A stretch of 13,134 nucleotides of DNA from a virus. Under the pieces are notes generated by a model. The model saw only the letters and a program-made list of their open reading frames with translations. It was not told the origin of the DNA and did not search any database. The translations under genes and the position numbers were made by a program. The stretch is from positions 1-13,134 of IMG/VR virus record IMGVR_UViG_3300045988_132438. One strand, written 5' to 3'. This document shows, piece by piece, positions 1 to 13,134 of the stretch (its first letter is position 1; each line of letters opens with the position of its first letter).

Positions 1-110
1 CAATATCACACAAAGTCTGTCACTTATCCTGTTGACATATTAGTTCATTTGGACTATAATAAACTCAACAAATCAATACAGCACAGCCAACTGGCAGGAG
101 GGAATATGAT
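1..110. repeat. Left inverted terminal repeat (ITR-L), 110 bp
   Basis: Bases 1-110 are the exact reverse complement of 13025-13134, compared by eye base by base. Identity ends at position 111 (a on the left, g in the right copy). The window starts and ends exactly on the repeat. Confidence 0.97.
32..60 (+). promoter_or_regulatory. Consensus sigma-A/sigma-70 type early promoter inside ITR-L, directed inward
   Basis: TTGACA at 32-37, a 17-nt spacer at 38-54, TATAAT at 55-60. The predicted TSS is near A67. AGGAGGG (96-102) follows, then start codons at 106 and 111. Confidence 0.8.
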
Positions 111-203
111 ATGAAAAGAGGAATGATCTTAAACGGACGTCATAGAGTATATGTTGGAAAAGAGATATTCAGTGATATCATGATTTTAAAGGAGGAACAG
201 TAA
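111..203 (+). CDS. Small early ORF, 30 aa (MKRGMILNGRHRVYVGKEIFSDIMILKEEQ), hypothetical
   Basis: Not in the ORF track (under 60 aa). ATG 111 lies 9 nt after the ITR-encoded AGGAGG. Its stop TAA 201-203 abuts ATG 204 of the next gene (TAAATG), which suggests translational coupling. Confidence 0.4.
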   Translation: MKRGMILNGRHRVYVGKEIFSDIMILKEEQ

Positions 204-638
204 ATGAAATCAAAATACACAAAAATTAAATATACGAACACCGGGGTAAAAGCCCCGGTAGTAACTCTTATGAAATCAAAATCAGATCTTGATAGAACAG
301 ACATGATAGAATTAAGATATTCAGACATAATCATAGTTATTTCAAGAATTTTACGAAAAACTATGTATAATAAAGCAGAATCAAGAATCGAAATACGAAG
401 AAAAAATAACACTCTTTGTGCACTAGTTAGAGTGAAAGATACTATCAATGATGCAAAAATAATGATTGAAAACTATTACATTTTTGCAAAACTTTATGTA
501 TATTTGAATGGAAAAAAATATATTAGTGACAAAGAGTATAGATACTATGAAGAATGGAATAAGATAGTGTGTGACAGGTTTAATCATAAACTATATGGTG
601 AAATAATGGGGGTACTCAAATATGCCAAAGAATCCTAA
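204..638 (+). CDS. Hypothetical early protein, 144 aa, Lys/Arg/Tyr-rich, encoded in a very AT-rich segment
   Basis: Track ORF with the strong RBS AAAGGAGG 6-7 nt upstream of ATG 204. I recognised no motif. It sits at the left-end early position upstream of the TP/polymerase pair. Confidence 0.7.
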   Translation: MKSKYTKIKYTNTGVKAPVVTLMKSKSDLDRTDMIELRYSDIIIVISRILRKTMYNKAESRIEIRRKNNTLCALVRVKDTINDAKIMIENYYIFAKLYVYLNGKKYISDKEYRYYEEWNKIVCDRFNHKLYGEIMGVLKYAKES

Positions 639-1242
639 AATCCCGACCACTTCTAAAGGTTTGAACGTCAATCCAAACATGCTGACTACCGCTGATGCTT
701 TACAACTTCGCAGACAGCTTGCAAAACGTCTGAATCAGCGTATGCGTAGATTAAAGGCAAAAGGATTTGATTCAGAAGTTGGAGGAGCGTATGCAGATTA
801 CCAAGACCTGCTTGCAAGATTTTTTCCAGGGAGATCAACCATTCCGGAAAATTTGGAAAATGAAAAGTATAAAGGGTTGCCAAGAACCCAAGTGAAAGCT
901 ATCCAGAAGATTCTGAAAGAAAAAAGTAGCACTGTGCAGGGTTGGAGAGAGATCATAGATCAACGTCAAAAAACACTCAGCACTGAATACGGAATCAATT
1001 TTAAGTCAAAAGAGGAAATGAAGTTGTTTTTTAAATCTGAGGTTTGGAAGTGGTTGCAGAAATTTTATGACAGCAAGCAAACTATGAGAATCATCAGTCA
1101 CAAACTGGATGATTCTACTGTTTCTGAGATCATAAAAGATCTGGAAAAATTCCGCGAGAGAACAGATCCGGATATGGCTGATACGATTGCAAAAGAACTT
1201 GGATTTTCCGGGGAGGCTGAGGCTTTGAAGTACAGACCATAG
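622..1242 (+). CDS. Terminal protein (replication primer) candidate, 206 aa
   Basis: It lies immediately upstream of the protein-primed PolB, as gene 3 precedes gene 2 in phi29. The basic N-terminus (MPKNPKIP..., QLAKRLNQRMRRLKAKGFD) loosely resembles the phi29 TP N-terminus (MARSPRIR..., AKIARTKKKYGVD). The assignment rests mainly on synteny and the presence of ITRs. Confidence 0.55.
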   Translation: MPKNPKIPTTSKGLNVNPNMLTTADALQLRRQLAKRLNQRMRRLKAKGFDSEVGGAYADYQDLLARFFPGRSTIPENLENEKYKGLPRTQVKAIQKILKEKSSTVQGWREIIDQRQKTLSTEYGINFKSKEEMKLFFKSEVWKWLQKFYDSKQTMRIISHKLDDSTVSEIIKDLEKFRERTDPDMADTIAKELGFSGEAEALKYRP

Positions 1243-1260
1243 CAGGGAGGAGACAAAGTA

Positions 1261-3384
1261 ATGATAGTAGCAGGATATCCGGTGGTCTATTTTAAAAACT
1301 ATGATTATATGCATTTATTTGATGGCAATTTTATACGGAGATCCAACGCAGGTCATTACCTTGGAGTATATGAAAAAATCATAACCGTAGACACAGAAAC
1401 CTTTGTATATCTTAACAAAAGCATTGGCTTTGTGACAGACTGGACAATCACCATAGAGAATGACTGCTGCATCTATGGTAATCATGTATCAGATCTGATA
1501 GACACGATAGACAGGATCTGTACCACATTACATGCTGATGACAGCCACCTTGTAAGATTTTTTGTTCACAATTTCCCTTATGATTATGTATTTTTAAGAA
1601 ATCATTTTTTCCAAAAATGGGGAAATCCGGACAAATCATTAGCTGCTAAAACTCATAAGTACATCTTTATGAAATGGACAGGACAGGGTATTGAGTTCCG
1701 GGACAGTCTTATCTTGACACAGAGATCATTAGAAAAGCTTTGTAAAGATATGGGCACCACTGAGAAAGCTGTCGGAACATGGGACTATAAGAAGTTTCGA
1801 ACGCCAGCAAGCCCACGTACGGCAAAAGAAATAGCATATGTCTGTACGGATACGATAAGCTTATGCAAAGCCCTACGCAAATACATAGATCAGAGAGGAT
1901 TTAACGTGGCGAACTGTCCGCTAACCAATACTGGTTTTATCCGAACCAATGCCCGCAGAAGATCAAGAAAAGACAAGAAATGGCGCAAGCAATTTGAGCA
2001 AATGGCATTAACACTTGAACAGTATGACCAGATGCTTGACTGCTATCATGGGGGGTATACCCATGCAAACAGATACTATATTAATCAATTGATAAAAGAA
2101 CCTGTTGAGTGCTATGACTTTGCAAGTTCTTATATTGCCTGGATGTGCTATTGCAAATTTCCTATGACGAACTTTTGTTATACAAATAGTATAACATTAA
2201 AAGACATTATGGACTTGAAAGAAGATTATGCTTTTTCCGGTTATATAAGATTAAAGAATCTGAGGTTGAAAAAAGACTGCCCTATGCCACCTCTTGCTTT
2301 TTCAAAAGCAAAAGTTTGTGTTTTCCCGGAAGCAAAAAGCAAAAAAGAACAGTTCCATGATAATTTGGACAATGGAAAGATTGTAAATGCAGATCTTGTC
2401 ATATATCCATTTACTGATCCGGATTTAGAAGTCATCCTGTCAAGTTATGATTATGAATGGGCGGACGTGTCAAAGGTCATGAGAGCGACAAAGGACTACT
2501 TGCCGGAGTGGTTCACAGGCTATTTGATGGAATTATTTTTTAAAAAATGCACCCTTAAAGGTTTGGATGAAGCAAACTATATGATCTCAAAAGGTGAGTT
2601 AAACGGCATGTACGGAATGACAGTACAGCGGATCATACAGATTATTTGTACTGAGTTGATGGAATCCGGAGAGTGGGAAGCAAAAGAACCAGAGGACAGG
2701 GAAAAAGAACTTGAAAAGTTCTATAAAAATAAAAACAGCTTCATGCCCTACCAGTGGGGAGTATTTATTACAGCTTATGCACAGGCTTATCTTTTCCGGT
2801 TGGGAGCCTGCTGCCGGAGGTGGCTATACTCTGATACGGACTCTGTTAAAGGCACAGACTGGGATCATGATAAACTGGATGCATTTAATCAGTCAATCGT
2901 TGATATGTCAAAAAAAAGAAACATCGGAGTAGTTGAGTATAAGGGCAAAACATTCCGTCTGGGTATCGCTGAGTTTGACGGAATATACAGTGAGTTTATA
3001 ACGATGGGTAGTAAGCGTTATTGCTACCGCTTAAAAAAAGATGCATCCTTGCATCTGACGGTCGCAGGAGTGCCAAAAGAGGGAATTTACTGTTTGGATG
3101 ATGACATAGCAAATTTCAGAAAAGGATTTATTTTCAGAAACGATTTGACATTCCGCAGGAACTACCGCAGGGTGAATGATTGGCAGGATCCTCATTGGAA
3201 AATGAAAACAGAGTATCTTTTTCATGACGGAATCAATGAACTGACCATTGACGGATGCAGGATTGAGTATGGCTGTGCTATCCGGTTGACCGATACAGAG
3301 TATGAATTGGATCATACGATTCCGTATGATAAAGAAACAGGATTGCCGTTGCCGTTTGAAATGGAATATACGGTATATGAATAG
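1261..3384 (+). CDS. Protein-primed family-B DNA polymerase (phi29 gp2-like), 707 aa
   Basis: RBS GGGAGGAG sits upstream of ATG 1261. Motifs read from the translation: ExoI D44-T-E46 (VDTET); ExoII N104-x3-D108 (HNFPYDYVF); ExoIII Y193-x3-D197 (YVCTD). Motif A is D286 (YDFASSY), motif B is K444-x3-N448-x2-Y451-G452 (KGELNGMYG), motif C is Y523-S-D-T-D-S528, and KxY is K585-R-Y587. About 70 aa separate motifs B and C, consistent with a TPR2-type insertion. Confidence 0.95.
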   Translation: MIVAGYPVVYFKNYDYMHLFDGNFIRRSNAGHYLGVYEKIITVDTETFVYLNKSIGFVTDWTITIENDCCIYGNHVSDLIDTIDRICTTLHADDSHLVRFFVHNFPYDYVFLRNHFFQKWGNPDKSLAAKTHKYIFMKWTGQGIEFRDSLILTQRSLEKLCKDMGTTEKAVGTWDYKKFRTPASPRTAKEIAYVCTDTISLCKALRKYIDQRGFNVANCPLTNTGFIRTNARRRSRKDKKWRKQFEQMALTLEQYDQMLDCYHGGYTHANRYYINQLIKEPVECYDFASSYIAWMCYCKFPMTNFCYTNSITLKDIMDLKEDYAFSGYIRLKNLRLKKDCPMPPLAFSKAKVCVFPEAKSKKEQFHDNLDNGKIVNADLVIYPFTDPDLEVILSSYDYEWADVSKVMRATKDYLPEWFTGYLMELFFKKCTLKGLDEANYMISKGELNGMYGMTVQRIIQIICTELMESGEWEAKEPEDREKELEKFYKNKNSFMPYQWGVFITAYAQAYLFRLGACCRRWLYSDTDSVKGTDWDHDKLDAFNQSIVDMSKKRNIGVVEYKGKTFRLGIAEFDGIYSEFITMGSKRYCYRLKKDASLHLTVAGVPKEGIYCLDDDIANFRKGFIFRNDLTFRRNYRRVNDWQDPHWKMKTEYLFHDGINELTIDGCRIEYGCAIRLTDTEYELDHTIPYDKETGLPLPFEMEYTVYE

Positions 3385-3386
3385 AA

Positions 3387-3438
3387 TTGTTATAAAATTG
3401 TAATACTTTTGTAACATAAATAAGTTAAACTGTATAAA
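3387..3438 (+). promoter_or_regulatory. Phased TTGTNA repeats and a weak candidate middle promoter downstream of the polymerase gene
   Basis: TTGTTA at 3387, TTGTAA at 3398 and TTGTAA at 3409 are spaced exactly 11 bp apart. The last one is followed by an 18-nt spacer and TATAAA (3433-3438). Confidence 0.25.
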
Positions 3439-3451
3439 GGAGGTATAACCT

Positions 3452-3565
3452 ATGAAAAAATTCTGGAAAGAAAACAAAGAAGATTTGAGTACTCTTTTCT
3501 GGACTTGCATTACTTTTGCCTGCATGTTTGCAAGCTGCCAAGTCTGGATGCTGTTAGGTGATTAA
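3452..3565 (+). CDS. Small hydrophobic protein, 37 aa (MKKFWKENKEDLSTLFWTCITFACMFASCQVWMLLGD), one predicted TM segment
   Basis: Not in the ORF track. The strong RBS AAAGGAGG (3437-3444) sits 7 nt before ATG 3452. It has a charged N-terminus followed by a hydrophobic stretch of about 22 residues. Confidence 0.5.
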   Translation: MKKFWKENKEDLSTLFWTCITFACMFASCQVWMLLGD

Positions 3566-3581
3566 GGAGGTGAGGAAAAAA

Positions 3582-3740
3582 TTGATTGACTTGTCTGAAA
3601 TTTATGAAATGCTTCGAACAAGCAGTCTGAGAAAAGTAAACTATGAGAATGAAGAAATCAGTGTAGTAGCTTACAAGGTAGGAGAAATCATTAGAATTGA
3701 TGTAAAGGAGGTAACAAAAGATGAATGTGTCCATGGATGA
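3582..3740 (+). CDS. Hypothetical small protein (about 52 aa from TTG 3582; start uncertain)
   Basis: The track ORF 3558-3740 begins at a GTG inside the preceding gene. AAGGAGGTGAGG (3564-3575) lies 6 nt upstream of TTG 3582. An alternative ATG at 3609 has no RBS. Confidence 0.4.
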   Translation: MIDLSEIYEMLRTSSLRKVNYENEEISVVAYKVGEIIRIDVKEVTKDECVHG

Positions 3741-3852
3741 TGCTTTTAAGGCACTTCACATTATTTCTCAAATCTGTACAGAAAACAAGGGTTGTAAATC
3801 ATGCCCATCTTATTGGAGTATAAAAGTACCTAAAATTAAATTATTTGATTAA
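3721..3852 (+). CDS. Small Cys-containing protein, 43 aa (MNVSMDDAFKALHIISQICTENKGCKSCPSYWSIKVPKIKLFD)
   Basis: Not in the ORF track. RBS AAGGAGG (3706-3712) lies 8 nt before ATG 3721, and the ORF overlaps the end of the previous ORF. Cysteines fall at positions 19, 25 and 28. Confidence 0.45.
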   Translation: MNVSMDDAFKALHIISQICTENKGCKSCPSYWSIKVPKIKLFD

Positions 3853-3870
3853 AAAAGGAGAAAAAATATC

Positions 3871-4170
3871 ATGTTAAAATCAAACGTAAAAATCACTTGC
3901 AAACCTTATAACGGTAGTTCAAAAACAAAAGCCTTTGTTGATCTGACTCTGGATGATACACTCATAATTAAAGGACTTACACTGCTTGAGGGGAAAAACG
4001 GGCTTTTCCTGTCATTCCCAAGTACAAAAGGAAAAGACGGAAAGTATTATGATTCCGTTTACTCTCTGGATAAAGAGTGGTTAAAACTTTTGCAGGATGC
4101 CTGCATCAAAAAATACAATGAATGCAACCAGACTTCACAGCCTGTATCCTCCGGGGGTGGATTCCGGTAA
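3871..4170 (+). CDS. SpoVG-family (nucleic-acid-binding) protein, 99 aa
   Basis: RBS AAAAGGAG. The segment KAFVDLTLDDTLIIKGLTLLEGKNGLFLSFPSTKGKDGKYYDSVYSLDKEWLKLLQDACIKKY aligns by eye with B. subtilis SpoVG as I recall it ([62 protein letters not shown]). Confidence 0.65.
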   Translation: MLKSNVKITCKPYNGSSKTKAFVDLTLDDTLIIKGLTLLEGKNGLFLSFPSTKGKDGKYYDSVYSLDKEWLKLLQDACIKKYNECNQTSQPVSSGGGFR

Positions 4171-5219
4171 TGAATATCTATGATAGAAATGGTTGGCTGG
4201 ATGTTCCAAGGATTGTCCAGCTTGCCGATAAAAATAAAATTAACTTTATCTTTATTATTGGGGCAAGACGAACCGGGAAAACGTATGGTATCTTCCAGCA
4301 CTTTATCAATGATGTCTTTTCGAAAAATGAGAAGATCATTTACATGAGACGCACAAAAGAGCAACTGACAAAAGTATTTCTTCCGGAGTTTGACCCCTGG
4401 CTGGACATAAACAAAAATATGAACAGGTTTTTTCACTTCGAAAAACCCAGAGGAGAATATGGTCGTATTAAGATTGTGGAGCAAACAGAGGAAGAGGAAG
4501 TATATAGAGGTGAGGCTTTTTGTCTAACTTCGATGCATAACAACCGTGGTTTCTCTGGATCTGATTTTTCTGAGGGAATTTATGATGAATTCATCCCAGA
4601 GAAGATAGCAAAAGCAATCAGTGGGGAAGATGATGCGTTTTTGAATGCTGTTGAAACAATCTCAGCAAACAGGGAATTGCAAGGAAAGAAACCGTTCCGC
4701 TGGTGGTTGGCTTCCAACTCCAATACGCTGGATAATCCGATTGTACAAGCTTTTGGTTTGCTTCCAATCCTTGAGCGAATGAAAAAAAATAAGCAGGAGT
4801 TTTCATTGCTAAAAGAAAGAGGAATCATTTTAGTTTTAATTAATGACTCTCCGATTTCAGAAAAAAAGAAAGACACTGCATTGTATCGTGCTTTATCGGG
4901 TAATACGGACTTTGCAAAGATGGCGCTTTCAAATGAGTTTGCATATGATGATGTATCGGCTATCCGATCAGAAGATATACGACAATACAAGCTTATTTGT
5001 GTCATTGGAAAAGTAGCAATTTATGAGCATAAATCAAAAGCCCATTTGTATGTGTCGGATCATATCTCTGGGTCTTGTAAGGATGTATTTGAAGACAACC
5101 AACATGGAAAAGACCAATTCAGATGCTTTTATAGTTGGATTGATAGCTATCGTCTGACAAATAGGATAAGTTATCAGAATATTTCAGTAAAATTTTATAT
5201 TGACAAATTATTCAAATAG
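4170..5219 (+). CDS. DNA packaging (encapsidation) ATPase, phi29 gp16-like, 349 aa
   Basis: Start ATG 4170 overlaps the upstream stop (TAATG). The track ORF's earlier start at 4122 lies inside the SpoVG-like gene. Walker A GARRTGKT is at 4260-4283. NFIFIIGARRTGKTYG...KIIYMRRTKEQLTKV parallels phi29 gp16 LNFVIGARGIGKSYA...QFIYVRRYKPELAKV. The Walker B-like IYDEFIPEK matches VFDEFIREK. Confidence 0.9.
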   Translation: MNIYDRNGWLDVPRIVQLADKNKINFIFIIGARRTGKTYGIFQHFINDVFSKNEKIIYMRRTKEQLTKVFLPEFDPWLDINKNMNRFFHFEKPRGEYGRIKIVEQTEEEEVYRGEAFCLTSMHNNRGFSGSDFSEGIYDEFIPEKIAKAISGEDDAFLNAVETISANRELQGKKPFRWWLASNSNTLDNPIVQAFGLLPILERMKKNKQEFSLLKERGIILVLINDSPISEKKKDTALYRALSGNTDFAKMALSNEFAYDDVSAIRSEDIRQYKLICVIGKVAIYEHKSKAHLYVSDHISGSCKDVFEDNQHGKDQFRCFYSWIDSYRLTNRISYQNISVKFYIDKLFK

Positions 5220-5228
5220 ACTTATATT
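5200..5228 (+). promoter_or_regulatory. Near-consensus promoter within the last codons of the ATPase gene
   Basis: TTGACA at 5200-5205, a 17-nt spacer at 5206-5222, TATATT at 5223-5228. The predicted TSS is about A5235/G5236. Confidence 0.6.
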
Positions 5229-5234
5229 TTAATT

Positions 5235-5313
5235 AGGTCAACGTGGCTACATCGACCGCCGGAAGCGGATGCCGTGGGGTGATTACCCGGAAGCGTTGAC
5301 CTATTTTAATTTT
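5235..5313 (+). ncRNA. Candidate structured small RNA (three-way junction); packaging RNA or late-leader attenuator
   Basis: A perfect 10-bp helix TAGGTCAACG (5234-5243) / CGTTGACCTA (5294-5303) encloses two hairpins. The first is an interrupted stem at 5245-5273 with a CGGAA loop. The second is GGGT 5277-5280 / ACCC 5285-5288 with a GATT loop. TTTTAATTTT (5304-5313) follows. The predicted promoter places the TSS at the first bases of the outer helix. No ORF with an RBS covers the element. Confidence 0.4.
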
Positions 5314-5337
5314 ACTTCCGGCAGAAAAGGAGAAAAA

Positions 5338-5649
5338 ATGAAAGTAGATCAGATTTTAGAACTTGGAAAACTTGGATTTACAAAAAATGAGATCATGGGG
5401 ATTCTGAACGCTCAGAGTATGTCCGGACTTGGACAGATTACAACTCCGGAACAGGGTACTACGCAGCAGACTACTCCTGGACAGGTTCCAACTCCGGGAC
5501 AGGATGCAACAAACACAGCGTTATTGACAGCAATCAATACTTTGACTGCTACCTTGCAGGCTGGGAACCTGTCAGCATCCGGAAAAGCTGGGTCAGCACC
5601 ACGTACCTCTGACAACGTAGCGGAAGATCTGATGAAACTCATGAATTAA
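5338..5649 (+). CDS. Scaffolding protein candidate, 103 aa
   Basis: RBS AAAAGGAG lies before ATG 5338. The track's earlier start at 5269 has no RBS and runs through the structured element. It is a small protein immediately upstream of the major capsid gene (phi29 gp7 position) with a low-complexity T/P/Q/G linker. Confidence 0.5.
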   Translation: MKVDQILELGKLGFTKNEIMGILNAQSMSGLGQITTPEQGTTQQTTPGQVPTPGQDATNTALLTAINTLTATLQAGNLSASGKAGSAPRTSDNVAEDLMKLMN

Positions 5650-5662
5650 GGAGGGTAAATAA

Positions 5663-6859
5663 ATGGCAAACAGTTTAGTAGTCCAGGATGCCTATTTAAT
5701 CATCAATGATTTATACAAAATGGCTACCGGACGCGAAAATATCAAAGCAGTAGACACAAGTTCCTTTGTGTCGGTTGGTGAAACTATGTTGCGGACAGGT
5801 GTAGAGCCAACACTGAAAGCACTCAGTCAGTGGTGCGGAAGAACATACTTTGAAATGGAAAAATACAGATCCGGTGTATTCCGCTCAATCATTGAGAATA
5901 ACGAACGCTGGGGGGCTATCACACGTGAGATTATTTCACTTCCGTTGGATGCAGAGGCTTCGCAGGATTGGAATACAGACTTGAATGAAAATCAGCTTGC
6001 TGATGGTCAGTCGGTCGACATGTACAAGATCAATGCCCCGAAAGTAGTGGAGTTGAAATTCTACGGTAGCAAAGTCTTACAGTCTCATATCACACGATTC
6101 CGTGATCAGCTGGCATTAGCTTTTTCTAATGAAACTGAGTTTCTTATGTTTGTAAGTAGCTATATGACCGCTTACTATAATGATATTGAATCCAGAAATG
6201 AAGCAAAGCGCAGACTGACAGTGCTCAACTTCATGGCAGGCATTTCCTATCTTGGAACAAATGAAGTAGATCTTGTAAAAGAGTACAATACAGCCTATGG
6301 AACAAAACTGACAAGAAAGCAGCTTTTAAGCCCGGAGTACCACAGAGATTTCATGGCTTTTGTGGTTGCAAGAATCAAAAAAGATTCCAAAAAGATGCAG
6401 GATCGCACGACAAAGTATCACATGAATCTGACTGGAAAAGATATCCTGCGCTTTACACGTCCGGAGAACCAGAAACTGCTTATGTATACCGATTTCTGGA
6501 TTGATTCCGAAACACAGGTATTTCCGACAGTCTTTAGTGATGAACAGTTAAAGATTGCCGACAAAGAACTTGTAAACGGCTGGCAGGAGTTTGACAGCCC
6601 AGCCATCAACATTAAACCTAACATCATTGATGCGACCGGTGTTTCCAAAACAGCTACGACAGCGGTAAATCTACCATATGTACTTGGTATTTTATATGAT
6701 CGTAGAGCAATGGGAGTGAACAATCAGTGGATGTACTCAGCAGCTACCCCATTCAACGCAGCAGGTGGCTATTACAATATCTTTGATCACTACCGGTTCA
6801 ACGCTTGGAATAATTTCACACACAACGCAGTCCTTTACGTACTGGGGGAGGGGGCATAA
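5663..6859 (+). CDS. Major capsid protein, phi29 gp8-like, 398 aa
   Basis: RBS AAGGAGGG. The C-terminal region ILYDRRAMGVNNQWMYSAATPFNAAGGYYNIFDHYRFNAWNNFTHNAVLYVLGEG aligns by eye with phi29 gp8 [54 protein letters not shown]. It ends there, with no C-terminal Ig-like domain. Confidence 0.85.
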   Translation: MANSLVVQDAYLIINDLYKMATGRENIKAVDTSSFVSVGETMLRTGVEPTLKALSQWCGRTYFEMEKYRSGVFRSIIENNERWGAITREIISLPLDAEASQDWNTDLNENQLADGQSVDMYKINAPKVVELKFYGSKVLQSHITRFRDQLALAFSNETEFLMFVSSYMTAYYNDIESRNEAKRRLTVLNFMAGISYLGTNEVDLVKEYNTAYGTKLTRKQLLSPEYHRDFMAFVVARIKKDSKKMQDRTTKYHMNLTGKDILRFTRPENQKLLMYTDFWIDSETQVFPTVFSDEQLKIADKELVNGWQEFDSPAINIKPNIIDATGVSKTATTAVNLPYVLGILYDRRAMGVNNQWMYSAATPFNAAGGYYNIFDHYRFNAWNNFTHNAVLYVLGEGA

Positions 6860-6860
6860 T

Positions 6861-7181
6861 ATGTTAGCAGCATCTTTACAAGTTCCTAGTGGGGGAAGTA
6901 TCGTTGCAAAATTACCTTTTAGAAAAGTCGGATTAAGAAGAATAGTTATTAGTGCCCCTAGTGACAGTGTGAATCTTACTTATGATGGCATCAATTTAGT
7001 AAAATTCAGCAAATACAACGGTTTTATTGATTTAAAATTCGAAAGTTATTTTGGTTTTCCGGATGCTAGCAATTTTGCCTTTGTAAACTACGACACTACT
7101 AATGCCAATGTTGTTGTTCTTGCTGACTGTGTTCCAGAATCACCTATAAACAATGATTATTTTGAGGTACAAACATCATGA
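6861..7181 (+). CDS. Hypothetical protein, 106 aa, probable virion component (occupies the phi29 gp8.5 position)
   Basis: ATG 6861 lies 7 nt after GGAGGGGG and 1 nt after the capsid stop. The track's longer N-terminus (from 6765) overlaps the capsid gene. The composition looks beta-rich and I recognised no motif. Confidence 0.6.
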   Translation: MLAASLQVPSGGSIVAKLPFRKVGLRRIVISAPSDSVNLTYDGINLVKFSKYNGFIDLKFESYFGFPDASNFAFVNYDTTNANVVVLADCVPESPINNDYFEVQTS

Positions 7182-7402
7182 CAGACACAATTTTGACAGT
7201 TTTAGGAAACTATGCTTTTCCGATCGTTTGCTGTATTGGCATGGCTTACTTTGTAAAATACATGTACGACCAGACCAATGCACGAGTTGACAAACTAAAC
7301 GAAGATCACAAGAATGAAGTTGATACGCTTTCTGAGGTGATCAAAAACAATACGATTGCCTTAGAAAAGATGAACGCATTAATCGAACAAATTGGAAAGT
7401 AG
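7178..7402 (+). CDS. Holin candidate, 74 aa, single N-terminal TM segment plus a charged helical tail
   Basis: ATGA overlap with the upstream stop. The hydrophobic stretch ILTVLGNYAFPIVCCIGMAYFV is followed by KYMYDQTNARVDKLNEDHKNEVDTL. This topology resembles the BhlA/UviB or YvrJ-type small holin-like proteins. It lies directly upstream of the endolysin. Confidence 0.55.
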   Translation: MTDTILTVLGNYAFPIVCCIGMAYFVKYMYDQTNARVDKLNEDHKNEVDTLSEVIKNNTIALEKMNALIEQIGK

Positions 7403-7409
7403 GTGCTAT

Positions 7410-8066
7410 ATGACAGCAAATGAACTTGTAGCATATGCTACTAATTTAATTGGCACTCCTTATGTCTGGGGTGGTAACACTCCTGCACAGGGACTTGACT
7501 GTTCCGGATTGCTTTACTATATCCAGAAGAAAGCAGGATCAGACGTGAGAGATATGACTGCTTCCGGATATTCCGAGTTTGGAAAAAAGATTGAAATTGG
7601 GCAGAAAAAACCGGGTGATTTTCTCTTTTTTGGTAGACCGGTCACTCATTGTGCTATTTATGTTGGAAACGGGTATATGATCGAAAGCCGAGGAGGACGA
7701 AAAAACACTGCTGAAAATCCAGGTATGGGAGTTGTAAAAAGCCCTGTAAGTCGTAGATCTGACTTATCTTGTATTCGCAGGGTATGGACAGAATACAATG
7801 AAGCACTAACCTATTCGATTGGAAAAACTTATACTACCAGAGTTGACCATTTACATGTTCGTTTTTCTGTCTGGGGACAAATCAAAGGATATGAACAGCT
7901 GACAGCTGACGGAATGAAACATGCTTATTCTGATGGATGCTTGAAAAAGGGAACCACAGTCACGGTAAAGGATGTCAAAAAGGATGCTGCCGGAGCAACG
8001 TGGGTAAGGATTCCATCCGGTTGGGTTTGCGCAATCACAGCAAAAGGAGATATCTATTTATCATGA
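7410..8066 (+). CDS. Endolysin: NlpC/P60 (C40) cell-wall peptidase with a C-terminal SH3b-like binding domain, 218 aa
   Basis: GTPYVWGGNTPAQGLDCSGLLYY carries the catalytic Cys31, and GDFLFFGRPVTHCAIYVGNGYMIES carries His80; together these are the NlpC/P60 signature. The C-terminal part (...GTTVTVKDVKKDAAGATWVRIPSGWVCAITAKGDIYL) looks SH3b-like. ATG 7410 is preferred over the track's TTG 7392. Confidence 0.85.
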   Translation: MTANELVAYATNLIGTPYVWGGNTPAQGLDCSGLLYYIQKKAGSDVRDMTASGYSEFGKKIEIGQKKPGDFLFFGRPVTHCAIYVGNGYMIESRGGRKNTAENPGMGVVKSPVSRRSDLSCIRRVWTEYNEALTYSIGKTYTTRVDHLHVRFSVWGQIKGYEQLTADGMKHAYSDGCLKKGTTVTVKDVKKDAAGATWVRIPSGWVCAITAKGDIYLS

Positions 8067-9406
8067 CGGAAATCATCTTATATCATTTTTCCAAAAGAAA
8101 AAACAGCACCAAAAGACCAACGGGACAGGGCACTACTGTGCCCTGTCTTTTAAAATCGAACACCACTTTTCAGAATCCAGTGTTTAAATTAAAATTATCA
8201 TTAGATAATGCATTGCAATACAACTATTTACAATGGGCTGACCATTACTATTTTATCAATTCGACGATGTCATTAAATAATGACATGGTTGAGATCTCAG
8301 CGAGTGAGGATGTGTTAGCTACCTACCGGACAGAGATCAGCAACTATACATGCTTTATTGAGCGTTCTGCTAAGCAGAATACGCTTGCAAATGATTCCAT
8401 GTATATCCCTACAAATGACTGGGTAAGTCAATCTACGATAGTTGGACAGCCAATAAATACGTTTGTGAATGGGTATGCACCAAACTATTTACTGCGCACT
8501 GTATCAGTTGAGGGAGTAAACACCTATTATATAAGAGGTAAGCAATTAAAAGAGTTATGCAACTTTATGTACACATATGGATCTATTCCAGATGTAATGG
8601 AAACAGCATTGACGCGTTTACTTTTTAATCCGTTTCAGTATATTCTTGATTTAAAATGGTTACCTTTTATGGTTGAAAAATTTGTAAATGCATTAGATAC
8701 TGTAAAGCTTGGCTACTGGGATAGCAACAAAAATGCCTATCTGATAGATGATGCATCTTGTACTTTTTCATATGATTTAAGCCTTGGGAATCCCTTATAT
8801 GCTGATACAGATTTCAGATTTTACAATCCTGCTTTTTCAAAGTATACTGTAAAGCTTCCATTTGTGGGGATTATTCCTATCAATCCAGCAAAGACCCATA
8901 AGGGGCAGTTAAAAGCTACTTATAACTTTGATGCTGTCTCCGGCATGGCAGACGTTTGGGTAACTTCCGGATCTGATGAATATGCACATTTTCAATGTCA
9001 GCTTGCCGTTCCGGTTCAAATTGGATATGCTACGGCAAACATTGGTCAGCTTACTACCAGCTTGATAGACGTAGGAACAAGCCTTGCTTCCGGTAACCCA
9101 ATAGGGGCTATCACAAATACGTTGGGGGCATTCCAGAGCGTAACCTCTCCGGAGCCTAACATGGTCGGAACTATTGGAAATATCAGTTCCATTTTGAACA
9201 ACATGGAAGCAAACAGCATCTGCTATGCCTGCACAAGCATAGGTCCAGATGGAGCAAGTGAGGGTTTTGTAGATGGCACTGTACGCTCTATATCTGGACT
9301 GACAGGCTTTGTAAAGTGTAGGAATGCATCTATACAGATTGCAGGATTTGAGGGGGATCAAGAGCAGGTGAATGAGTACTTAAACAACGGATTTTACTTT
9401 GAATAG
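8063..9406 (+). CDS. Tail knob / distal tail tube protein, phi29 gp9-like, 447 aa
   Basis: ATGA overlap with the endolysin stop. The N-terminal YNYLQWADHYYFINSTMSLNNDMVEISASEDVLATY resembles gp9 [41 protein letters not shown]. A Gly/Ala/Ser/Thr-rich hydrophobic loop (GQLTTSLIDVGTSLASGNPIGAITNTLGAFQS) sits at the position of the gp9 membrane-active loop. The C-terminal FVKCRNASIQIAGFEGDQEQVNEYLNNGFYFE resembles gp9 [32 protein letters not shown]. Confidence 0.7.
   Translation: MTEIILYHFSKRKNSTKRPTGQGTTVPCLLKSNTTFQNPVFKLKLSLDNALQYNYLQWADHYYFINSTMSLNNDMVEISASEDVLATYRTEISNYTCFIERSAKQNTLANDSMYIPTNDWVSQSTIVGQPINTFVNGYAPNYLLRTVSVEGVNTYYIRGKQLKELCNFMYTYGSIPDVMETALTRLLFNPFQYILDLKWLPFMVEKFVNALDTVKLGYWDSNKNAYLIDDASCTFSYDLSLGNPLYADTDFRFYNPAFSKYTVKLPFVGIIPINPAKTHKGQLKATYNFDAVSGMADVWVTSGSDEYAHFQCQLAVPVQIGYATANIGQLTTSLIDVGTSLASGNPIGAITNTLGAFQSVTSPEPNMVGTIGNISSILNNMEANSICYACTSIGPDGASEGFVDGTVRSISGLTGFVKCRNASIQIAGFEGDQEQVNEYLNNGFYFE
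8124..8151 (+). terminator. Terminator-like stem-loop inside the tail-knob CDS (possible attenuator)
   Basis: GACAGGGCAC (8124-8133), loop TACT, GTGCCCTGTC (8138-8147). This is a perfect 10-bp stem with 7 G:C pairs, followed by TTTT (8148-8151). It lies 61 nt into the gene. Confidence 0.4.
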
Positions 9407-9421
9407 AAAGAGGTGATAAAC

Positions 9422-10342
9422 ATGTGGACGCCGGTTAATTTTGACAAGATTAATATTTGCACAAATTACTTCCAACCGTCCGGAATTAAAGTCGACAGCT
9501 TATATACTGATACGTTTGATCGTATGCTTTATGAGCGTGTTTGTTCAATTTTAGACATTAGCTATAATGGAACTATTGACATTGATTACTTTAAATATTG
9601 TTTGCTTTTCGGTGGCTATATTTGCATAACAAAGACAGATCTTTATGGTCTGATTGCACAATACCCAATTTTGACAGGCTACAATATTTATTTCAAACCA
9701 ACCACAGCTACTATACACACGTATTCAAGCAATGCAGAGATTGACATGGAGGACATGGAGATCGGAAAAGACTGTTCTGTCATCTATCTCAGACCAACTT
9801 TCTGCGGCATTGGGGATATCATCGGTTTTTACAGCTATAAGCTGGCACTGGTAGCAAGTGCGTTTGATATGAATGTATTTAATTCAAAACTTGCTTTTCT
9901 GATAGCCGCTAAAAATAAAGCCGCGGCTCAGACCTTGAAAAAAATCTATGACAGTATTCAATCCGGTAATCCGGTTGAGGCTTTTGATGTATCAATAAAA
10001 AGCGAGGACAGACAAGGAGCCAAACAGGATGCTTGGGAGAGTTTCAACAAAGACTTGAAGCAGAACTTCATTGCACCGGAGTTGATTGAGGTATTTGAGA
10101 AACTTCTTGATCAGTTTGATACAGAGGTTGGTATTCCATCTGTCGGGTCTGATAAAAAAGAACGACTGAATGTGCTTGAAACAAGCAAAAATGATGCAGA
10201 ATCAGTAACACGGCTCACTACTTGGCTTGAGACTATAAAAGCAGGAGTTGACATGACAAACAGATTATATCCAGAAATGAACTTGTCAATCAAGATCAGA
10301 AGCTATGAAACTGCGGGGGTGAAAACTTATGGGTCTTTATAA
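9422..10342 (+). CDS. Portal / upper collar connector protein, phi29 gp10-like, 306 aa
   Basis: RBS AAAGAGGTG lies before ATG 9422. The track start at 9413 is the GTG inside that RBS. FDTEVGIPSVGSDKKERLNVLETSKNDAES parallels gp10 [29 protein letters not shown]. The central region AAKNKAAAQTLKKIYDSIQSGNPVEAF parallels [24 protein letters not shown]. The size matches gp10 (309 aa). Confidence 0.85.
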   Translation: MWTPVNFDKINICTNYFQPSGIKVDSLYTDTFDRMLYERVCSILDISYNGTIDIDYFKYCLLFGGYICITKTDLYGLIAQYPILTGYNIYFKPTTATIHTYSSNAEIDMEDMEIGKDCSVIYLRPTFCGIGDIIGFYSYKLALVASAFDMNVFNSKLAFLIAAKNKAAAQTLKKIYDSIQSGNPVEAFDVSIKSEDRQGAKQDAWESFNKDLKQNFIAPELIEVFEKLLDQFDTEVGIPSVGSDKKERLNVLETSKNDAESVTRLTTWLETIKAGVDMTNRLYPEMNLSIKIRSYETAGVKTYGSL

Positions 10343-11018
10343 GATTACGATAGCAGGTCTTTATGAATGGAACAACACTCTCTTTGACAAGATGGAATTC
10401 CCAGAATCAGCTGATCGGCAAAACTTTATTGATAGCTTGCTTTTGTCCTATGGGGATTGTGAGCCATTATACCCGGACTGGAATTTTATGTATGAGAGTG
10501 CTATTCCTGCATGGAGCAGGAAATGGAAAAATAGCATTGACAAGGTTTATAATGTGTTAGAATTAACTAATTATGAACCAATTGAAAACTATGATCGTCA
10601 TGAAGAATGGACAGATAGCCCGGATATGACACGAACAAATCAGAGTTCCGGCCAAGATGTAAATAGAGCAGAAGCAGGACAGGGAACCACTACTACTAAC
10701 TCTGGGGCAGATACAACTACCAATGAAGTCAGTGCTTTTAATGATGCAAATTACAGCCCAAACGAAAAAACAACGACGGAATACGGAGGAAGCACAAAGG
10801 TACAAAGTTCCGGAGAAAACAAAAACACGTTTGAATACGGAAAAGGAGAAACAAGCAGAGAAACAGGACAGAATAAGCATTCCGGACATATTCATGGCAA
10901 TATTGGAGTGACTACGTCTCAGCAAATGATCCAGTCAGAACTTGAGTTACGGAAACAAAGCTTTATTGATTATTGCACCGGACTTTTTGCACAGGATTTG
11001 CTTTTATTAACTTATTAA
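10329..11018 (+). CDS. Lower collar protein, phi29 gp11-like, 229 aa
   Basis: It follows the portal gene with a 14-nt overlap, preceded by RBS GGGGGTGA. It contains an NYEPIENYDR motif, a long Ser/Thr/Gly/Asn/Glu low-complexity middle, and a C-terminal FIDYCTGLFAQDLLLLTY. This matches the architecture I recall for gp11-type lower collars. Confidence 0.65.
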   Translation: MGLYKITIAGLYEWNNTLFDKMEFPESADRQNFIDSLLLSYGDCEPLYPDWNFMYESAIPAWSRKWKNSIDKVYNVLELTNYEPIENYDRHEEWTDSPDMTRTNQSSGQDVNRAEAGQGTTTTNSGADTTTNEVSAFNDANYSPNEKTTTEYGGSTKVQSSGENKNTFEYGKGETSRETGQNKHSGHIHGNIGVTTSQQMIQSELELRKQSFIDYCTGLFAQDLLLLTY

Positions 11019-11032
11019 GGAGGGAATAAATT

Positions 11033-12289
11033 ATGATTTTCAGATATCCACACAGTGGATCGCATGATATGAATTTAGACTGGTTGCTTAAAGTTGGCAA
11101 ACAGGTAGAAAAAGATCATGAAGAATGGACGCATATAAAAGATACAGCCCAAACCATGATCGATGATGCTATTCAAAAATCACTTGATGATGGAGAGATC
11201 GGAAAAGTGGTAAATGATGCTACTACAAAACTCATCACTGAACAGATTGACCCATTAAAAGAACAGGTTGGAACAAATACAGCTGATATCACAAAGTTAC
11301 AGAAAAGAGATGGGCTTTTTGACCACTCCGGAAAAACCATCATCATCGGAGACAGCTACACGGTTGGTTATAGTCCAGATGGCAACTTGACACCTTGGAC
11401 TACAAACTTTATCAAGTACACAGGGCTTGAGGATGTTACTATTTCTGCAAATGGGGGGGCTTCATTTTCGACAGCTTCCAATTCATTCCTTATGCTTTTA
11501 AACGCTGTACCTGCTTCTGATGACGTGAAGCAAATCTTGGTAGTTGGAGGGTTTAATGAGTTCGGAACCTATTCAGAGATTGAAAATGCAATCAATGCTT
11601 TTATGGGTGTCGCTGAGGTCAGATTCCCAAATGCAAAAGTGTTTGCCGCTATGGTAGCATGGTCAGTTGACCGGACGGACGACCCAAACGTGCAAAATCG
11701 GTTAAAGATTGCAAAATCTGTTTATAACACACAGCGGAAGAATTGGCGCTATCTGGCAGGCTCAGATTATATCCTCCATGCTGACGGCTTTCTTGCATCT
11801 GACGGGTTCCATCCAAACAGTACCGGACAGGAACGGCTTGCTACCTATCTTGCTACAGCTGTAGAAACAGGAGCATGTAGCCCATCATTTTATGAAGTTA
11901 CTGCAAATTTTGAAGCAGGCGACTTTACACCTACTCCTGGGTCAAGCTGGGCTTTTGTAAGTTCATACAATGAGAATACAAGCACTTTAATCTGGGGTAA
12001 CTATGTTTGCCTACCAAACAGCGGAACACTTGTCTGTGATGGCACTGAGTACCGTTTGGGGCGCATCTATTCGACTTCCTTTATCGGAGATCATAACGGT
12101 TATACATGCTACCCAACCACTGTGATCGTTAAGTCTGGCAGTGACTTTTTTCACATTCCTGCACAGCTTAACTTCCGAGGTCGACATATCTATTTGAGTT
12201 TGTATGATATTTCTGATGACAAGCACAACTACCGGACATTAACAGAGGTTACACAGGTACAGATTCACAGAGGATCAATTACCATGTAA
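11033..12289 (+). CDS. Tail appendage / receptor-binding protein with a central SGNH (GDSL) esterase domain, 418 aa
   Basis: RBS AAGGAGGG. SGNH blocks: I IIIGDS (G106-D107-S108), II ANGG (about 139-142), III VVGGFNE (N175), V D257-G-F-H260 (SDGFHPN). The N-terminal HDMNLDWLLK plus a coiled segment is typical of collar-attached fibres. The C-terminal 140 aa or so is Cys/Tyr/Ser-rich and probably the binding domain. Confidence 0.7.
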   Translation: MIFRYPHSGSHDMNLDWLLKVGKQVEKDHEEWTHIKDTAQTMIDDAIQKSLDDGEIGKVVNDATTKLITEQIDPLKEQVGTNTADITKLQKRDGLFDHSGKTIIIGDSYTVGYSPDGNLTPWTTNFIKYTGLEDVTISANGGASFSTASNSFLMLLNAVPASDDVKQILVVGGFNEFGTYSEIENAINAFMGVAEVRFPNAKVFAAMVAWSVDRTDDPNVQNRLKIAKSVYNTQRKNWRYLAGSDYILHADGFLASDGFHPNSTGQERLATYLATAVETGACSPSFYEVTANFEAGDFTPTPGSSWAFVSSYNENTSTLIWGNYVCLPNSGTLVCDGTEYRLGRIYSTSFIGDHNGYTCYPTTVIVKSGSDFFHIPAQLNFRGRHIYLSLYDISDDKHNYRTLTEVTQVQIHRGSITM

Positions 12290-12301
12290 ATATAAAATAT
12301 G

Positions 12302-12335
12302 ATAGCCCAGTGGATGCTGGGCTATTTTTTATTTT
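12302..12335. terminator. Bidirectional rho-independent terminator between the convergent late (+) and right-early (-) operons
   Basis: ATAGCCCAG (12302-12310), loop TGGATG, CTGGGCTAT (12317-12325), then TTTTTATTTT on the plus strand. A-rich sequence upstream gives a U-rich tail on the minus strand. Confidence 0.8.
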
Positions 12336-12637
12336 GTATCTTTCAAAAGTTTTCTGAGTAACTTGATTACACCCCAGTTTGTTGAGGCACTGTAAGTTCT
12401 TACACCTTTTTGAGGGTTCATAATAAATTCCCTTTTTGATGCTTCATAATAAAGAACCCTCCAGTCTTTAAAGTCTGTCATGCTTATTTCAACAAAACCA
12501 AAATAGTAGTTAAAGTGTTGAATAATCAAAGTATCACAATCTTTGCTAAGTCTACATATGAAGCCTTGCTTTTTGAGATCAAGAGCAAGCTGTTTAAGGT
12601 TCATTGTATCTTTGTTGTAGTATGGATTCACTCTCAT
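12329..12637 (-). CDS. Hypothetical right-end early protein, 102 aa, basic
   Basis: Track ORF with the strong RBS on the minus strand (TAGGAGGTATATAAC then ATG). It is the last gene of the three-gene operon driven by the right ITR promoter. I recognised no motif. Confidence 0.7.
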   Translation of the reverse strand: MRVNPYYNKDTMNLKQLALDLKKQGFICRLSKDCDTLIIQHFNYYFGFVEISMTDFKDWRVLYYEASKREFIMNPQKGVRTYSASTNWGVIKLLRKLLKDTK

Positions 12638-12649
12638 GTTATATACCTC

Positions 12650-12838
12650 CTATAATTCAATATTAAATAAGCTGTTAAGGCAATCTTCAAAACTTGGTTC
12701 AGTATTGCAATACGCAATGATAAACTCTTCATTTGTGCATGGTGCTAACTCACGATGGATAGACTCTCTGAGATCATCATTCATATATAATGCTATATCA
12801 TTCATTTCCCCATTTGTTACTTCTTTGACTGATTTCAT
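12650..12838 (-). CDS. Hypothetical small acidic early protein, 62 aa
   Basis: Track ORF with RBS GAGGTGA and an ATGA start/stop overlap with the upstream gene. It has 13 Asp/Glu against 4 Lys/Arg. Confidence 0.7.
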   Translation of the reverse strand: MKSVKEVTNGEMNDIALYMNDDLRESIHRELAPCTNEEFIIAYCNTEPSFEDCLNSLFNIEL

Positions 12839-13029
12839 CTTTTCACCTCATATTTTAAACCTATGATTTTCATTTCACTTTCAAGAGTGCATAACTCATT
12901 CCAGAGTTCTCTTTCTATTGACTTGAAAGACTCACAGCTAGGATAACTACGAACGTCTTCATACGCTTTTCCCCATTTTCCTAATAAGCACTCATGTGCT
13001 AACTCATATAATCTTTTTTCTTTCATCAT
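12835..13029 (-). CDS. Hypothetical right-end early protein, 64 aa (MMKEKRLYELAHE...)
   Basis: The start is the ATG at ITR position 106 (plus coordinate 13029), or the next ATG, downstream of the ITR AGGAGGG. The track's longer version (start 13086) begins upstream of the predicted TSS and is unlikely. Confidence 0.65.
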   Translation of the reverse strand: MMKEKRLYELAHECLLGKWGKAYEDVRSYPSCESFKSIERELWNELCTLESEMKIIGLKYEVKR

Positions 13030-13134
13030 ATTCCCTCCTGCCAGTTGGCTGTGCTGTATTGATTTGTTGAGTTTATTATAGTCCAAATGAACTAATATGT
13101 CAACAGGATAAGTGACAGACTTTGTGTGATATTG
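13025..13134. repeat. Right inverted terminal repeat (ITR-R), 110 bp
   Basis: Exact reverse complement of 1-110. Confidence 0.97.
13075..13103 (-). promoter_or_regulatory. Consensus early promoter inside ITR-R, directed inward (mirror of 32-60)
   Basis: On the minus strand: TTGACA (13103-13098), 17 nt, TATAAT (13080-13075). The predicted TSS is about 13068. Confidence 0.8.

Follow-up and report, generated by a model that had tools for sequence, protein, structure and literature searches.

Two-part terminal inverted repeats with a predicted early expression cassette in an uncultured phi29-like phage of the human gut

IMG/VR virus record IMGVR_UViG_3300045988_132438 was analysed over positions 1 to 13,134 (the window, a stretch of 13,134 nucleotides (nt)), which is the nearly complete genome of an uncultured phi29-like phage from the human gut. 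The two ends of the window form a terminal inverted repeat (ITR) that contains a consensus promoter and a Shine–Dalgarno sequence (SD), both of which face inward, and we compared these ends with those of 54 relatives in IMG/VR, all of which are metagenome assemblies. The comparison placed the true termini beyond both ends of the window, and we hold with good confidence that the complete ITR is made up of two parts. The outer ~117–150 nt, starting 5′-AAACTTGGCAAG, would serve as the replication origin and the terminal-recognition part. The inner ~110 nt, composed of GTCTG(A/T)CA boxes, a consensus sigma-A promoter, a ~30-nt leader and a strong SD, would serve as an early expression cassette.

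The window stops short of the genome ends

The original prediction for this sequence described a 110-nt repeat with TTGACA-17-TATAAT, AGGAGGG and an ATG inside it, and each of these elements was found, the right copies being mirrored (Table 1). It also placed the end of the repeat 2 nt past the ATG at 106–108, and the last repeated position is indeed 110. However, the repeat does not begin at the genome end. About 20 independent contig ends among the relatives begin exactly at 5′-AAACTTGGCAAG, and the counterpart of window position 1 lies 121–132 nt inside this terminus. Two contigs from other assemblies carry the sequence of the window further outward. The first, L065, equals window positions 1–2138 save for 4 adjacent bases and reaches 120 nt further out, to AACTTGGCAAGG; the second, L061, agrees with the right end in every one of the first 304 nt and reaches 116 nt further out, to TGGCAAGG. 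They stop 1 and 5 nt, respectively, from the conserved terminus. Because L065 and L061 extend the window ends outward, the window lacks the outer ~121 nt of each end, the true ITR is ~231 nt long and the −35 hexamer lies ~153 nt from the true terminus, not 32 nt. In the reading that we favour, the genome starts with AAACTTGG and not with CAATATCAC. Both ends of the window stop at the identical position of the repeat, as collapse of the ITR in an assembly graph would give, and many truncated relatives break in the same region, beside the strain-variable patch that is described below.

The AAA at the start of the ITR lies outside the window and is seen in the ends of the relatives, to which L065 and L061 connect this genome. 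Terminal nucleotide repetition is required for sliding-back in phi29-like phages (PMC6266182; PMC4974454), and the AAA repetition fits this requirement. The outer ITR contains TGAACA/TGTTCA repeats. Three further features were noted in the outer ITR of L010 (1–150): a 17-nt inverted repeat (TGAACAAATTGTGAACA at 22–38 and TGTTCATATTTTGTTCA at 50–66), an 11-nt unit, GTTCATATTTY, whose tandem copies number two or three according to strain, and a single-strand DNA fold with z = −2.2.

Natural deletion variants separate the outer part from the inner one. L042 has complete AAACTTGG termini and an ITR of just 117 nt; at its right end (118–200, mirrored), the terminator and the end of the last late gene lie within ~35 nt of the repeat, and neither a promoter nor an operon is present. 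At the right end of L050 (177–200, mirrored), the promoter runs straight into the terminator, without the right operon. On account of these two variants, we conclude that the outer ~117 nt suffices as a genome end, and that the right cassette and its operon are accessory.

These findings bear directly on the mechanism put forward in the original prediction, in which an ITR of ~110 bp superimposes the origin on the early promoter, so that the terminal protein (TP) and the DNA polymerase (PolB) compete with RNA polymerase (RNAP) for the same ~100 bp. The window as given favours such an overlap, its −35 hexamer being 32 nt from the end of the sequence, but the missing ~121 nt per end inverts this mechanistic reading. 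Moreover, L042, with its 117-nt ITR and no right promoter, splits the two functions; relatives whose repeat stops short of the promoter had been named in the prediction as evidence that would count against it, and L042 is one. Given this 117-nt ITR and the ~153-nt distance of the −35 hexamer from the terminus, there is no basis for direct competition between TP/polymerase and RNAP on one ~100-bp stretch, and the strong form of the overlap is already contradicted. A weaker form draws on phi29, in which the very early promoter C2 is shut off by the p6 complex, whose nucleation occurs 46–125 bp from the ends (PMC4974454), a documented coupling of an origin-bound complex to promoter shut-off (PMC4974454; PMC11476376). 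By analogy, spreading of an origin complex could possibly repress the ITR promoter later in infection, but no p6 homologue was identified in the window sequence. Overall, we judge the overlap of origin and promoter to be unlikely.

Conservation of the inner cassette

The promoter agrees with the sigma-70/sigma-A consensus (TTGACA, 17 ± 1 bp, TATAAT) at 12 of 12 positions and has a 17-bp spacer. The only 12/12 matches in the window are the two mirrored ITR copies. The expected number of exact matches is 0.01 per window, and at least two matches were seen in 0 of 200 shuffled sequences, the two matches of the window being a single sequence doubled by the repeat and not independent. No outward-facing promoter was found in the complete ITR, and a promoter scan of the window detected no additional promoter 5′ of the TP/PolB operon.

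Conservation was assessed on loci oriented by PolB, which gave 50 ends from 34 genomes. These ends share a consensus promoter and a GGAGG SD ~65 nt downstream of it, with the start of an open reading frame (ORF) mostly 4–11 nt later; the promoter lies 132–175 nt from the true end across the relatives. Among the 33 unique ends, the two hexamers are the best-conserved positions (Table 1), exceeding the spacer (column conservation of 0.85), the flanks (0.70–0.81) and window positions 5–9 (0.60); TTGACA is present in 29 of the unique ends and TATAAT in 23. The same plan is found in L056 and L057 (69% PolB identity), which have the terminus AAACTAGGCAAGG, TTGACA-17-TAAAAT at 132 and an SD at 179. 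These results suggest that the terminal promoter, leader and SD are probably functional, inward-reading and of the sigma-A/sigma-70 type. Of the ‘complete expression cassette’ that the original prediction saw duplicated at both genome ends, the promoter, leader and SD are thus borne out by the 50 ends, whereas the start codon is not part of the conserved unit, the conserved starts being at 111 and 13026.

It could be argued that replication or packaging is the sole reason for keeping the ~231-nt repeat, that its promoter and SD are incidental and that early transcription begins elsewhere. Long ITRs without a recognizable promoter do exist, the 110-bp ITR of phage PRD1 being one. However, an incidental origin of the promoter is difficult to reconcile with the low chance expectation of a 12/12 match, with hexamers that are more conserved than their spacer and flanks, with an SD followed by an ORF start at 4–11 nt across the 50 ends, or with the lack of any other promoter upstream of the TP/PolB operon. 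Furthermore, the inner half is dispensable at one end of L042, which runs counter to a replication requirement. We therefore consider this explanation very unlikely.

A second concern is that the terminal duplication, or its perfection, is an artefact of assembly and that only one end has the promoter. De Bruijn graphs collapse inverted repeats, which yields symmetric and 100% identical contig ends, and the halt of both window ends at the same repeat position resembles the behaviour of a graph rather than a terminus. By contrast, independent assemblies carry left and right copies that differ in sequence: L001 81%, L026 90% (full local alignment), L029 84%; L001 92% over 143 nt. In L004, L040 and L046, the two copies are 99.1–99.5% identical. 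Contigs that cover a single end, L061 (right) and L065 (left), connect the cassette to unique genes that differ between the two, and the isolate genomes of Streptococcus phage Cp-1 and Clostridium phage HM2 have the same layout. With imperfect copies and with ends that continue into different genes, an artefactual duplication, another outcome that the original prediction had set against itself, appears extremely improbable.

The sequence upstream of the promoter combines an invariant and a highly variable component. A direct repeat, GTCTG(A/T)CA, has its promoter-proximal copy in the box AAAGTCTGTCA and its distal copy 21 nt further upstream, beyond the window; both boxes are essentially invariant, and three copies are present in L030. 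This box is a candidate regulator site. Between the invariant GTCTGACAAT and AAAGTCTGTCA boxes, 21–27 nt upstream of the −35 hexamer, lies a 7-nt patch with 12 alleles among 41 ends, although any one genome always has the same allele at both ends. The 4 adjacent bases in which L065 departs from the window fall within this patch and are the sole difference over 2.1 kb. The patch might reflect diversifying selection on a regulator site or a defence-recognition site.

The inner boundary of the repeat is also informative. The left and right ends diverge 0–18 nt past GGAGG in 15 of the 22 genomes that have both promoters, and the window does so at +9. Full ITR lengths are 117 nt, 182 nt, 224–252 nt in nine cases, 334 nt, 442 nt and 1433 nt, and ITR boundaries are mobile in this clade. 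The long perfect or near-perfect ITRs carry whole genes at both ends (L052, 1–1430; L040, 1–442; L010, 1–334).

In the two-part model, host RNAP would start at the transcription start sites predicted near 67 (+) and 13068 (−) after DNA entry and would read inward from each. The left transcript would comprise small early genes, the candidate TP gene and the DNA polymerase gene. The right transcript would comprise three small accessory genes, one of which is similar to the anti-CRISPR gene AcrIC5, and would stop at the terminator at 12301–12326. The placement of the AcrIC5-like gene in the right operon and of TP and polymerase on the left would fit immediate-early expression by host RNAP. End-to-end homogenization would maintain the identity of the two ITR copies, and this identity would cease where the ends encode different proteins, a few nt past the SD. 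Recombination and panhandle-type repair are the usual explanations of homogenized ends in protein-primed genomes.

Several points weigh against the model. The arguments for promoter activity and for early timing are the consensus match, the conservation and the orientation of the genes. L042 and L050 might not be viable phages but defective genomes. The perfect identity of the two copies and the symmetry of the window ends are partly built in, as de Bruijn assemblers collapse ITRs. The TP gene is a candidate by its position alone; its 206-amino acid (aa) product had no Pfam or PHROG match, and a BLASTP comparison with the Cp-1 terminal protein was not significant. An Rfam scan of the whole window at E ≤ 1 gave zero matches, hence no known leader RNA or packaging RNA (pRNA). 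Finally, the putative assignment of the host to the Firmicutes is drawn from the strong GGAGG SDs and from the nearest cultured relatives.

Genes behind the cassette and genome layout

The ORFs that the original prediction read from the two ITR copies are present. On the left, the sequence reads ATG ATA TGA, and the ATG at 111 opens a 30-codon ORF that is joined to the next gene (TAA, then ATG at 204); in the right copy, the ATG of the repeat, at 13029, opens a 64-codon ORF. The relatives, however, place the conserved starts slightly further in. In L014L, there is no ATG equivalent to that at 106 and the MKRG... start is kept, and in L046L, ATG ATA TGA likewise stands ahead of the start. The conserved right start is the second ATG, at 13026–13024, which straddles the ITR boundary; L002R and L031R retain this ATG alone. 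The product of 111–203 derives by an in-frame deletion from an ~80-aa protein of the relatives (compare L014L, in which MKRGMILNGRHRVYVGKEI is followed by ~50 aa and then FSDI...).

Downstream of the same cassette, at least 10 unrelated first-gene families were found, and most of them are specific to one end. Family 2, the window's left-end type, is on the left in 11 of 11 cases, and family 1 is on the right in 11 of 11. Family 3, the type at the right end of the window, occupies the right end in 7 genomes and the left end in 3. The long ITRs of L010 and L040 double families 3 and 5 at both ends, which elsewhere are mostly right-end genes, and the AcrIC5-like gene is the first gene after the ITR SD in four relatives and at both ends of L040. 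One reading of this distribution, which we put forward as possible though rather doubtful, is that the cassette acts as a universal homology arm for swapping first-position early (anti-defence) genes between phages and between ends. In such terminal gene-cassette exchange, first genes would occasionally be copied to both ends. The number of first-gene families, the occurrence of family 3 on both sides, the ITRs of 334, 442 and 1433 nt and the hypervariable 7-nt patch between its invariant boxes are consistent with this reading.

The remainder of the window has the composition of a compact, phi29-like, protein-primed podovirus, as judged by Pfam profile matches. These matches identify PolB at 1261–3384 (+) (PF03175, DNA_pol_B_2, E = 3.5e-12, 46.4 bits, with the cut-off at 25.8) and, all above their cut-offs, a Gp16 packaging ATPase at 4122–5219 (PF05894, E = 5.4e-17), a phi29-type major capsid protein at 5663–6859 (PF25622, E = 4.5e-15) and a gp10-type connector at 9413–10342 (PF05352, E = 3.4e-13). 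Plus-strand genes span 111–12289, and the minus strand holds three small genes, from 13029 down to 12329; every gene is oriented away from the nearer ITR promoter, and non-coding space outside the ITRs is almost nil. The nearest GenBank record is an unannotated human-faecal contig with 84% nucleotide identity. The nearest cultured phages share only ~30% PolB identity with this genome and comprise Clostridium phage HM2, phages of Amedibacillus and Gram-negative podoviruses of ~11.5 kb.

Table 1. Features of the ITRs and of the genes next to them (window coordinates)
Feature	Position	Strand	Remarks
Left ITR	1–110	+	110 nt, 100% complementary to the right copy
Hypervariable 7-nt patch ATCACAC	5–11	+	Mirrored at 13124–13130; 125–131 in L065
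Box AAAGTCTGTCA	12–22	+	Promoter-proximal copy of the GTCTG(A/T)CA direct repeat
Left −35, TTGACA	32–37	+	Conservation of 0.975 across 33 unique ends
Left −10, TATAAT	55–60	+	17-nt spacer; conservation of 0.944 across 33 unique ends
SD, AGGAGGG	96–102	+	Mirrored at 13033–13039; last element common to all ends
ATG inside the repeat	106–108	+	4 nt past GGAGG
Mini-ORF, ATG ATA TGA	106–114	+	ATG at 106 not a conserved start
First left gene, 30 aa	111–203	+	Family 2; starts 9 nt past GGAGG; TAA immediately precedes the ATG at 204
Second left early gene, 144 aa	204–638	+	Family 4; first post-ITR gene in six relatives
Candidate terminal protein gene, 206 aa	622–1242	+	Assigned only by its position directly 5′ of the PolB gene
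Bidirectional intrinsic terminator	12301–12326	.	Lies between the long block read rightward and the short right-end operon read leftward
Third right gene, 102 aa	12329–12637	−	No family match
Second right gene, 62 aa, AcrIC5-like (anti-CRISPR)	12650–12838	−	PF22147, E = 3.3e-8, 34 bits (cut-off, 27)
First right gene, 64 codons from the ATG at 13029	12835–13029	−	Family 3
Right ITR	13025–13134	−	Perfect partner of 1–110
Right early promoter, TTGACA-17-TATAAT	13075–13103	−	Reads leftward into the right-end operon

Pfam and PHROG searches with the small early ORFs and the candidate TP gave matches only for the AcrIC5-like protein and for a SpoVG homologue; the 144-aa product of 204–638 had none. 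The SpoVG homologue (3871–4170 (+), PF04026, E = 2.5e-17) is encoded immediately 5′ of the packaging ATPase gene, which it overlaps, and could be a nucleic-acid-binding regulator. The second-best promoter of the window, TTGACA-17-TATATT at 5200–5228 (11/12), lies just ahead of the structural gene block that starts at 5269. A 21-nt inverted repeat (5223–5243 and 5294–5314) brackets the gene start at 5269, with one arm overlapping this promoter, which may be a regulated late promoter. A pRNA is expected alongside a Gp16-type ATPase, but none was detected by Rfam and the window has no sizeable non-coding gap, although a divergent pRNA could escape such a search. The gap after PolB (3385–3870) was considered as a location for it and ruled out, as this stretch is packed with small, SD-preceded ORFs.

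Comparison with known protein-primed genomes

The closest precedent is Cp-1 (Salasmaviridae, Cepunavirus), likewise a phi29-like podovirus that is protein-primed, has an AAA terminus and carries a long ITR. For this phage, start sites and ITR were taken from the GenBank annotation (L059). Its annotated ITR of 236 bp is perfect over 236 nt, and the inverted repeat runs on to 352 nt at 98% identity (1–352 and 18992–19343). Over its 352 nt, the repeat takes in both of the annotated early promoters and has its inner edge at the PE1/PE4 start site given in the record. As in the gut clade, consensus TTGACA-17-TATAAT promoters lie within the repeat at both ends and face inward: PE1 and PE2 on the left, and PE4 and PE5 on the right, with annotated starts at 351 for PE1 and at the mirrored positions 257 and 351 for PE5 and PE4, respectively. 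Only the outer right-end promoter deviates, with a TACAAT −10 hexamer. The operons also correspond, the left one running from small genes to terminal protein and DNA polymerase and the right one containing a few small genes. The genome of the window, in turn, has the Cp-1-type arrangement of an ITR longer than 100 bp with an inward sigma-A promoter in both copies, a candidate TP gene and PolB on the left, and an accessory operon on the right.

Cp-1 and the gut clade nevertheless differ in several respects. Cp-1 has two tandem promoters per end, 222–344 nt from the terminus, whereas the gut clade has one. In Cp-1, the leader, ribosome-binding site and start codons are outside the repeat, whereas the repeat of the gut clade normally runs through the leader to the SD. 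The two show no detectable nucleotide homology, and their terminal proteins are not detectably similar. In HM2, the nearest cultured phage by PolB (~31%), which has a 17.5-kb genome, the ITR measures ~179 nt (97%), and each copy contains an inward TTGACA-17-GATAAT. The HM2 promoter is near the inner edge of the repeat, which ends ~10–15 nt past the −10 hexamer, near the predicted start site and not at an SD; we know of no transcript mapping for this phage. Having early promoters within the terminal repeat is thus already an established trait of phi29-like phages with long ITRs, to which the present clade adds the leader and the SD as parts of the repeated unit. The novelty that the original prediction implied by contrast with phi29 alone was accordingly overstated, since Cp-1 and HM2 already have promoters in long ITRs.

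In phi29 itself, C2 is an end-proximal early promoter that reads inward, as here, but the ITR is 6 bp (AAAGTA), the promoters are in unique sequence and the left early operon is transcribed toward the left end, unlike here. The ITRs of Bacillus phi29-like phages are 6–16 bp and those of Clostridium perfringens podoviruses 25–30 bp. The tectivirus PRD1, from a different virus realm, has a linear, protein-primed genome, early operons at both ends and a perfect 110-bp ITR, the same length as the repeat in the window. As a precedent for a promoter within an ITR, PRD1 was ruled out, as its sole promoter-like match (144–173) falls outside the 110-bp ITR.

Other records offered no further examples. 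The record of Amedibacillus phage AD70P3 has no ITR, and that of Salmonella phage astrithr has one of only 18 nt. Five other human-gut podovirus records (~30% PolB identity), with partial or no ITRs, have no promoter of at least 11/12. A full-text literature search for a phage promoter within an inverted terminal repeat returned nothing relevant. In poxviruses, ITR length shifts among close relatives by movement of the inner boundary, which doubles terminal accessory genes. The likeness to the gut clade is one of evolutionary dynamics only, as poxviruses are hairpin-ended viruses of eukaryotes with a different replication mechanism.

The analysis extends the Cp-1 layout to podoviruses of ~13 kb from the human gut, an abundant and uncultured clade. 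It also illustrates that metagenomic phage contigs flagged as ‘complete’ by an ITR can still miss the true termini. The conserved terminus and the minimal 117-nt end could inform how orthogonal, protein-primed replicons for Firmicutes are designed. The picture that we favour is modular, with an outer part that would hold the origin and, inside it, an expression part whose limit is the SD, a split that the natural deletion variants support. Because the cassette fronts highly variable first genes, including an anti-CRISPR-like one, the ends of these genomes are a good place in which to seek new anti-defence genes.

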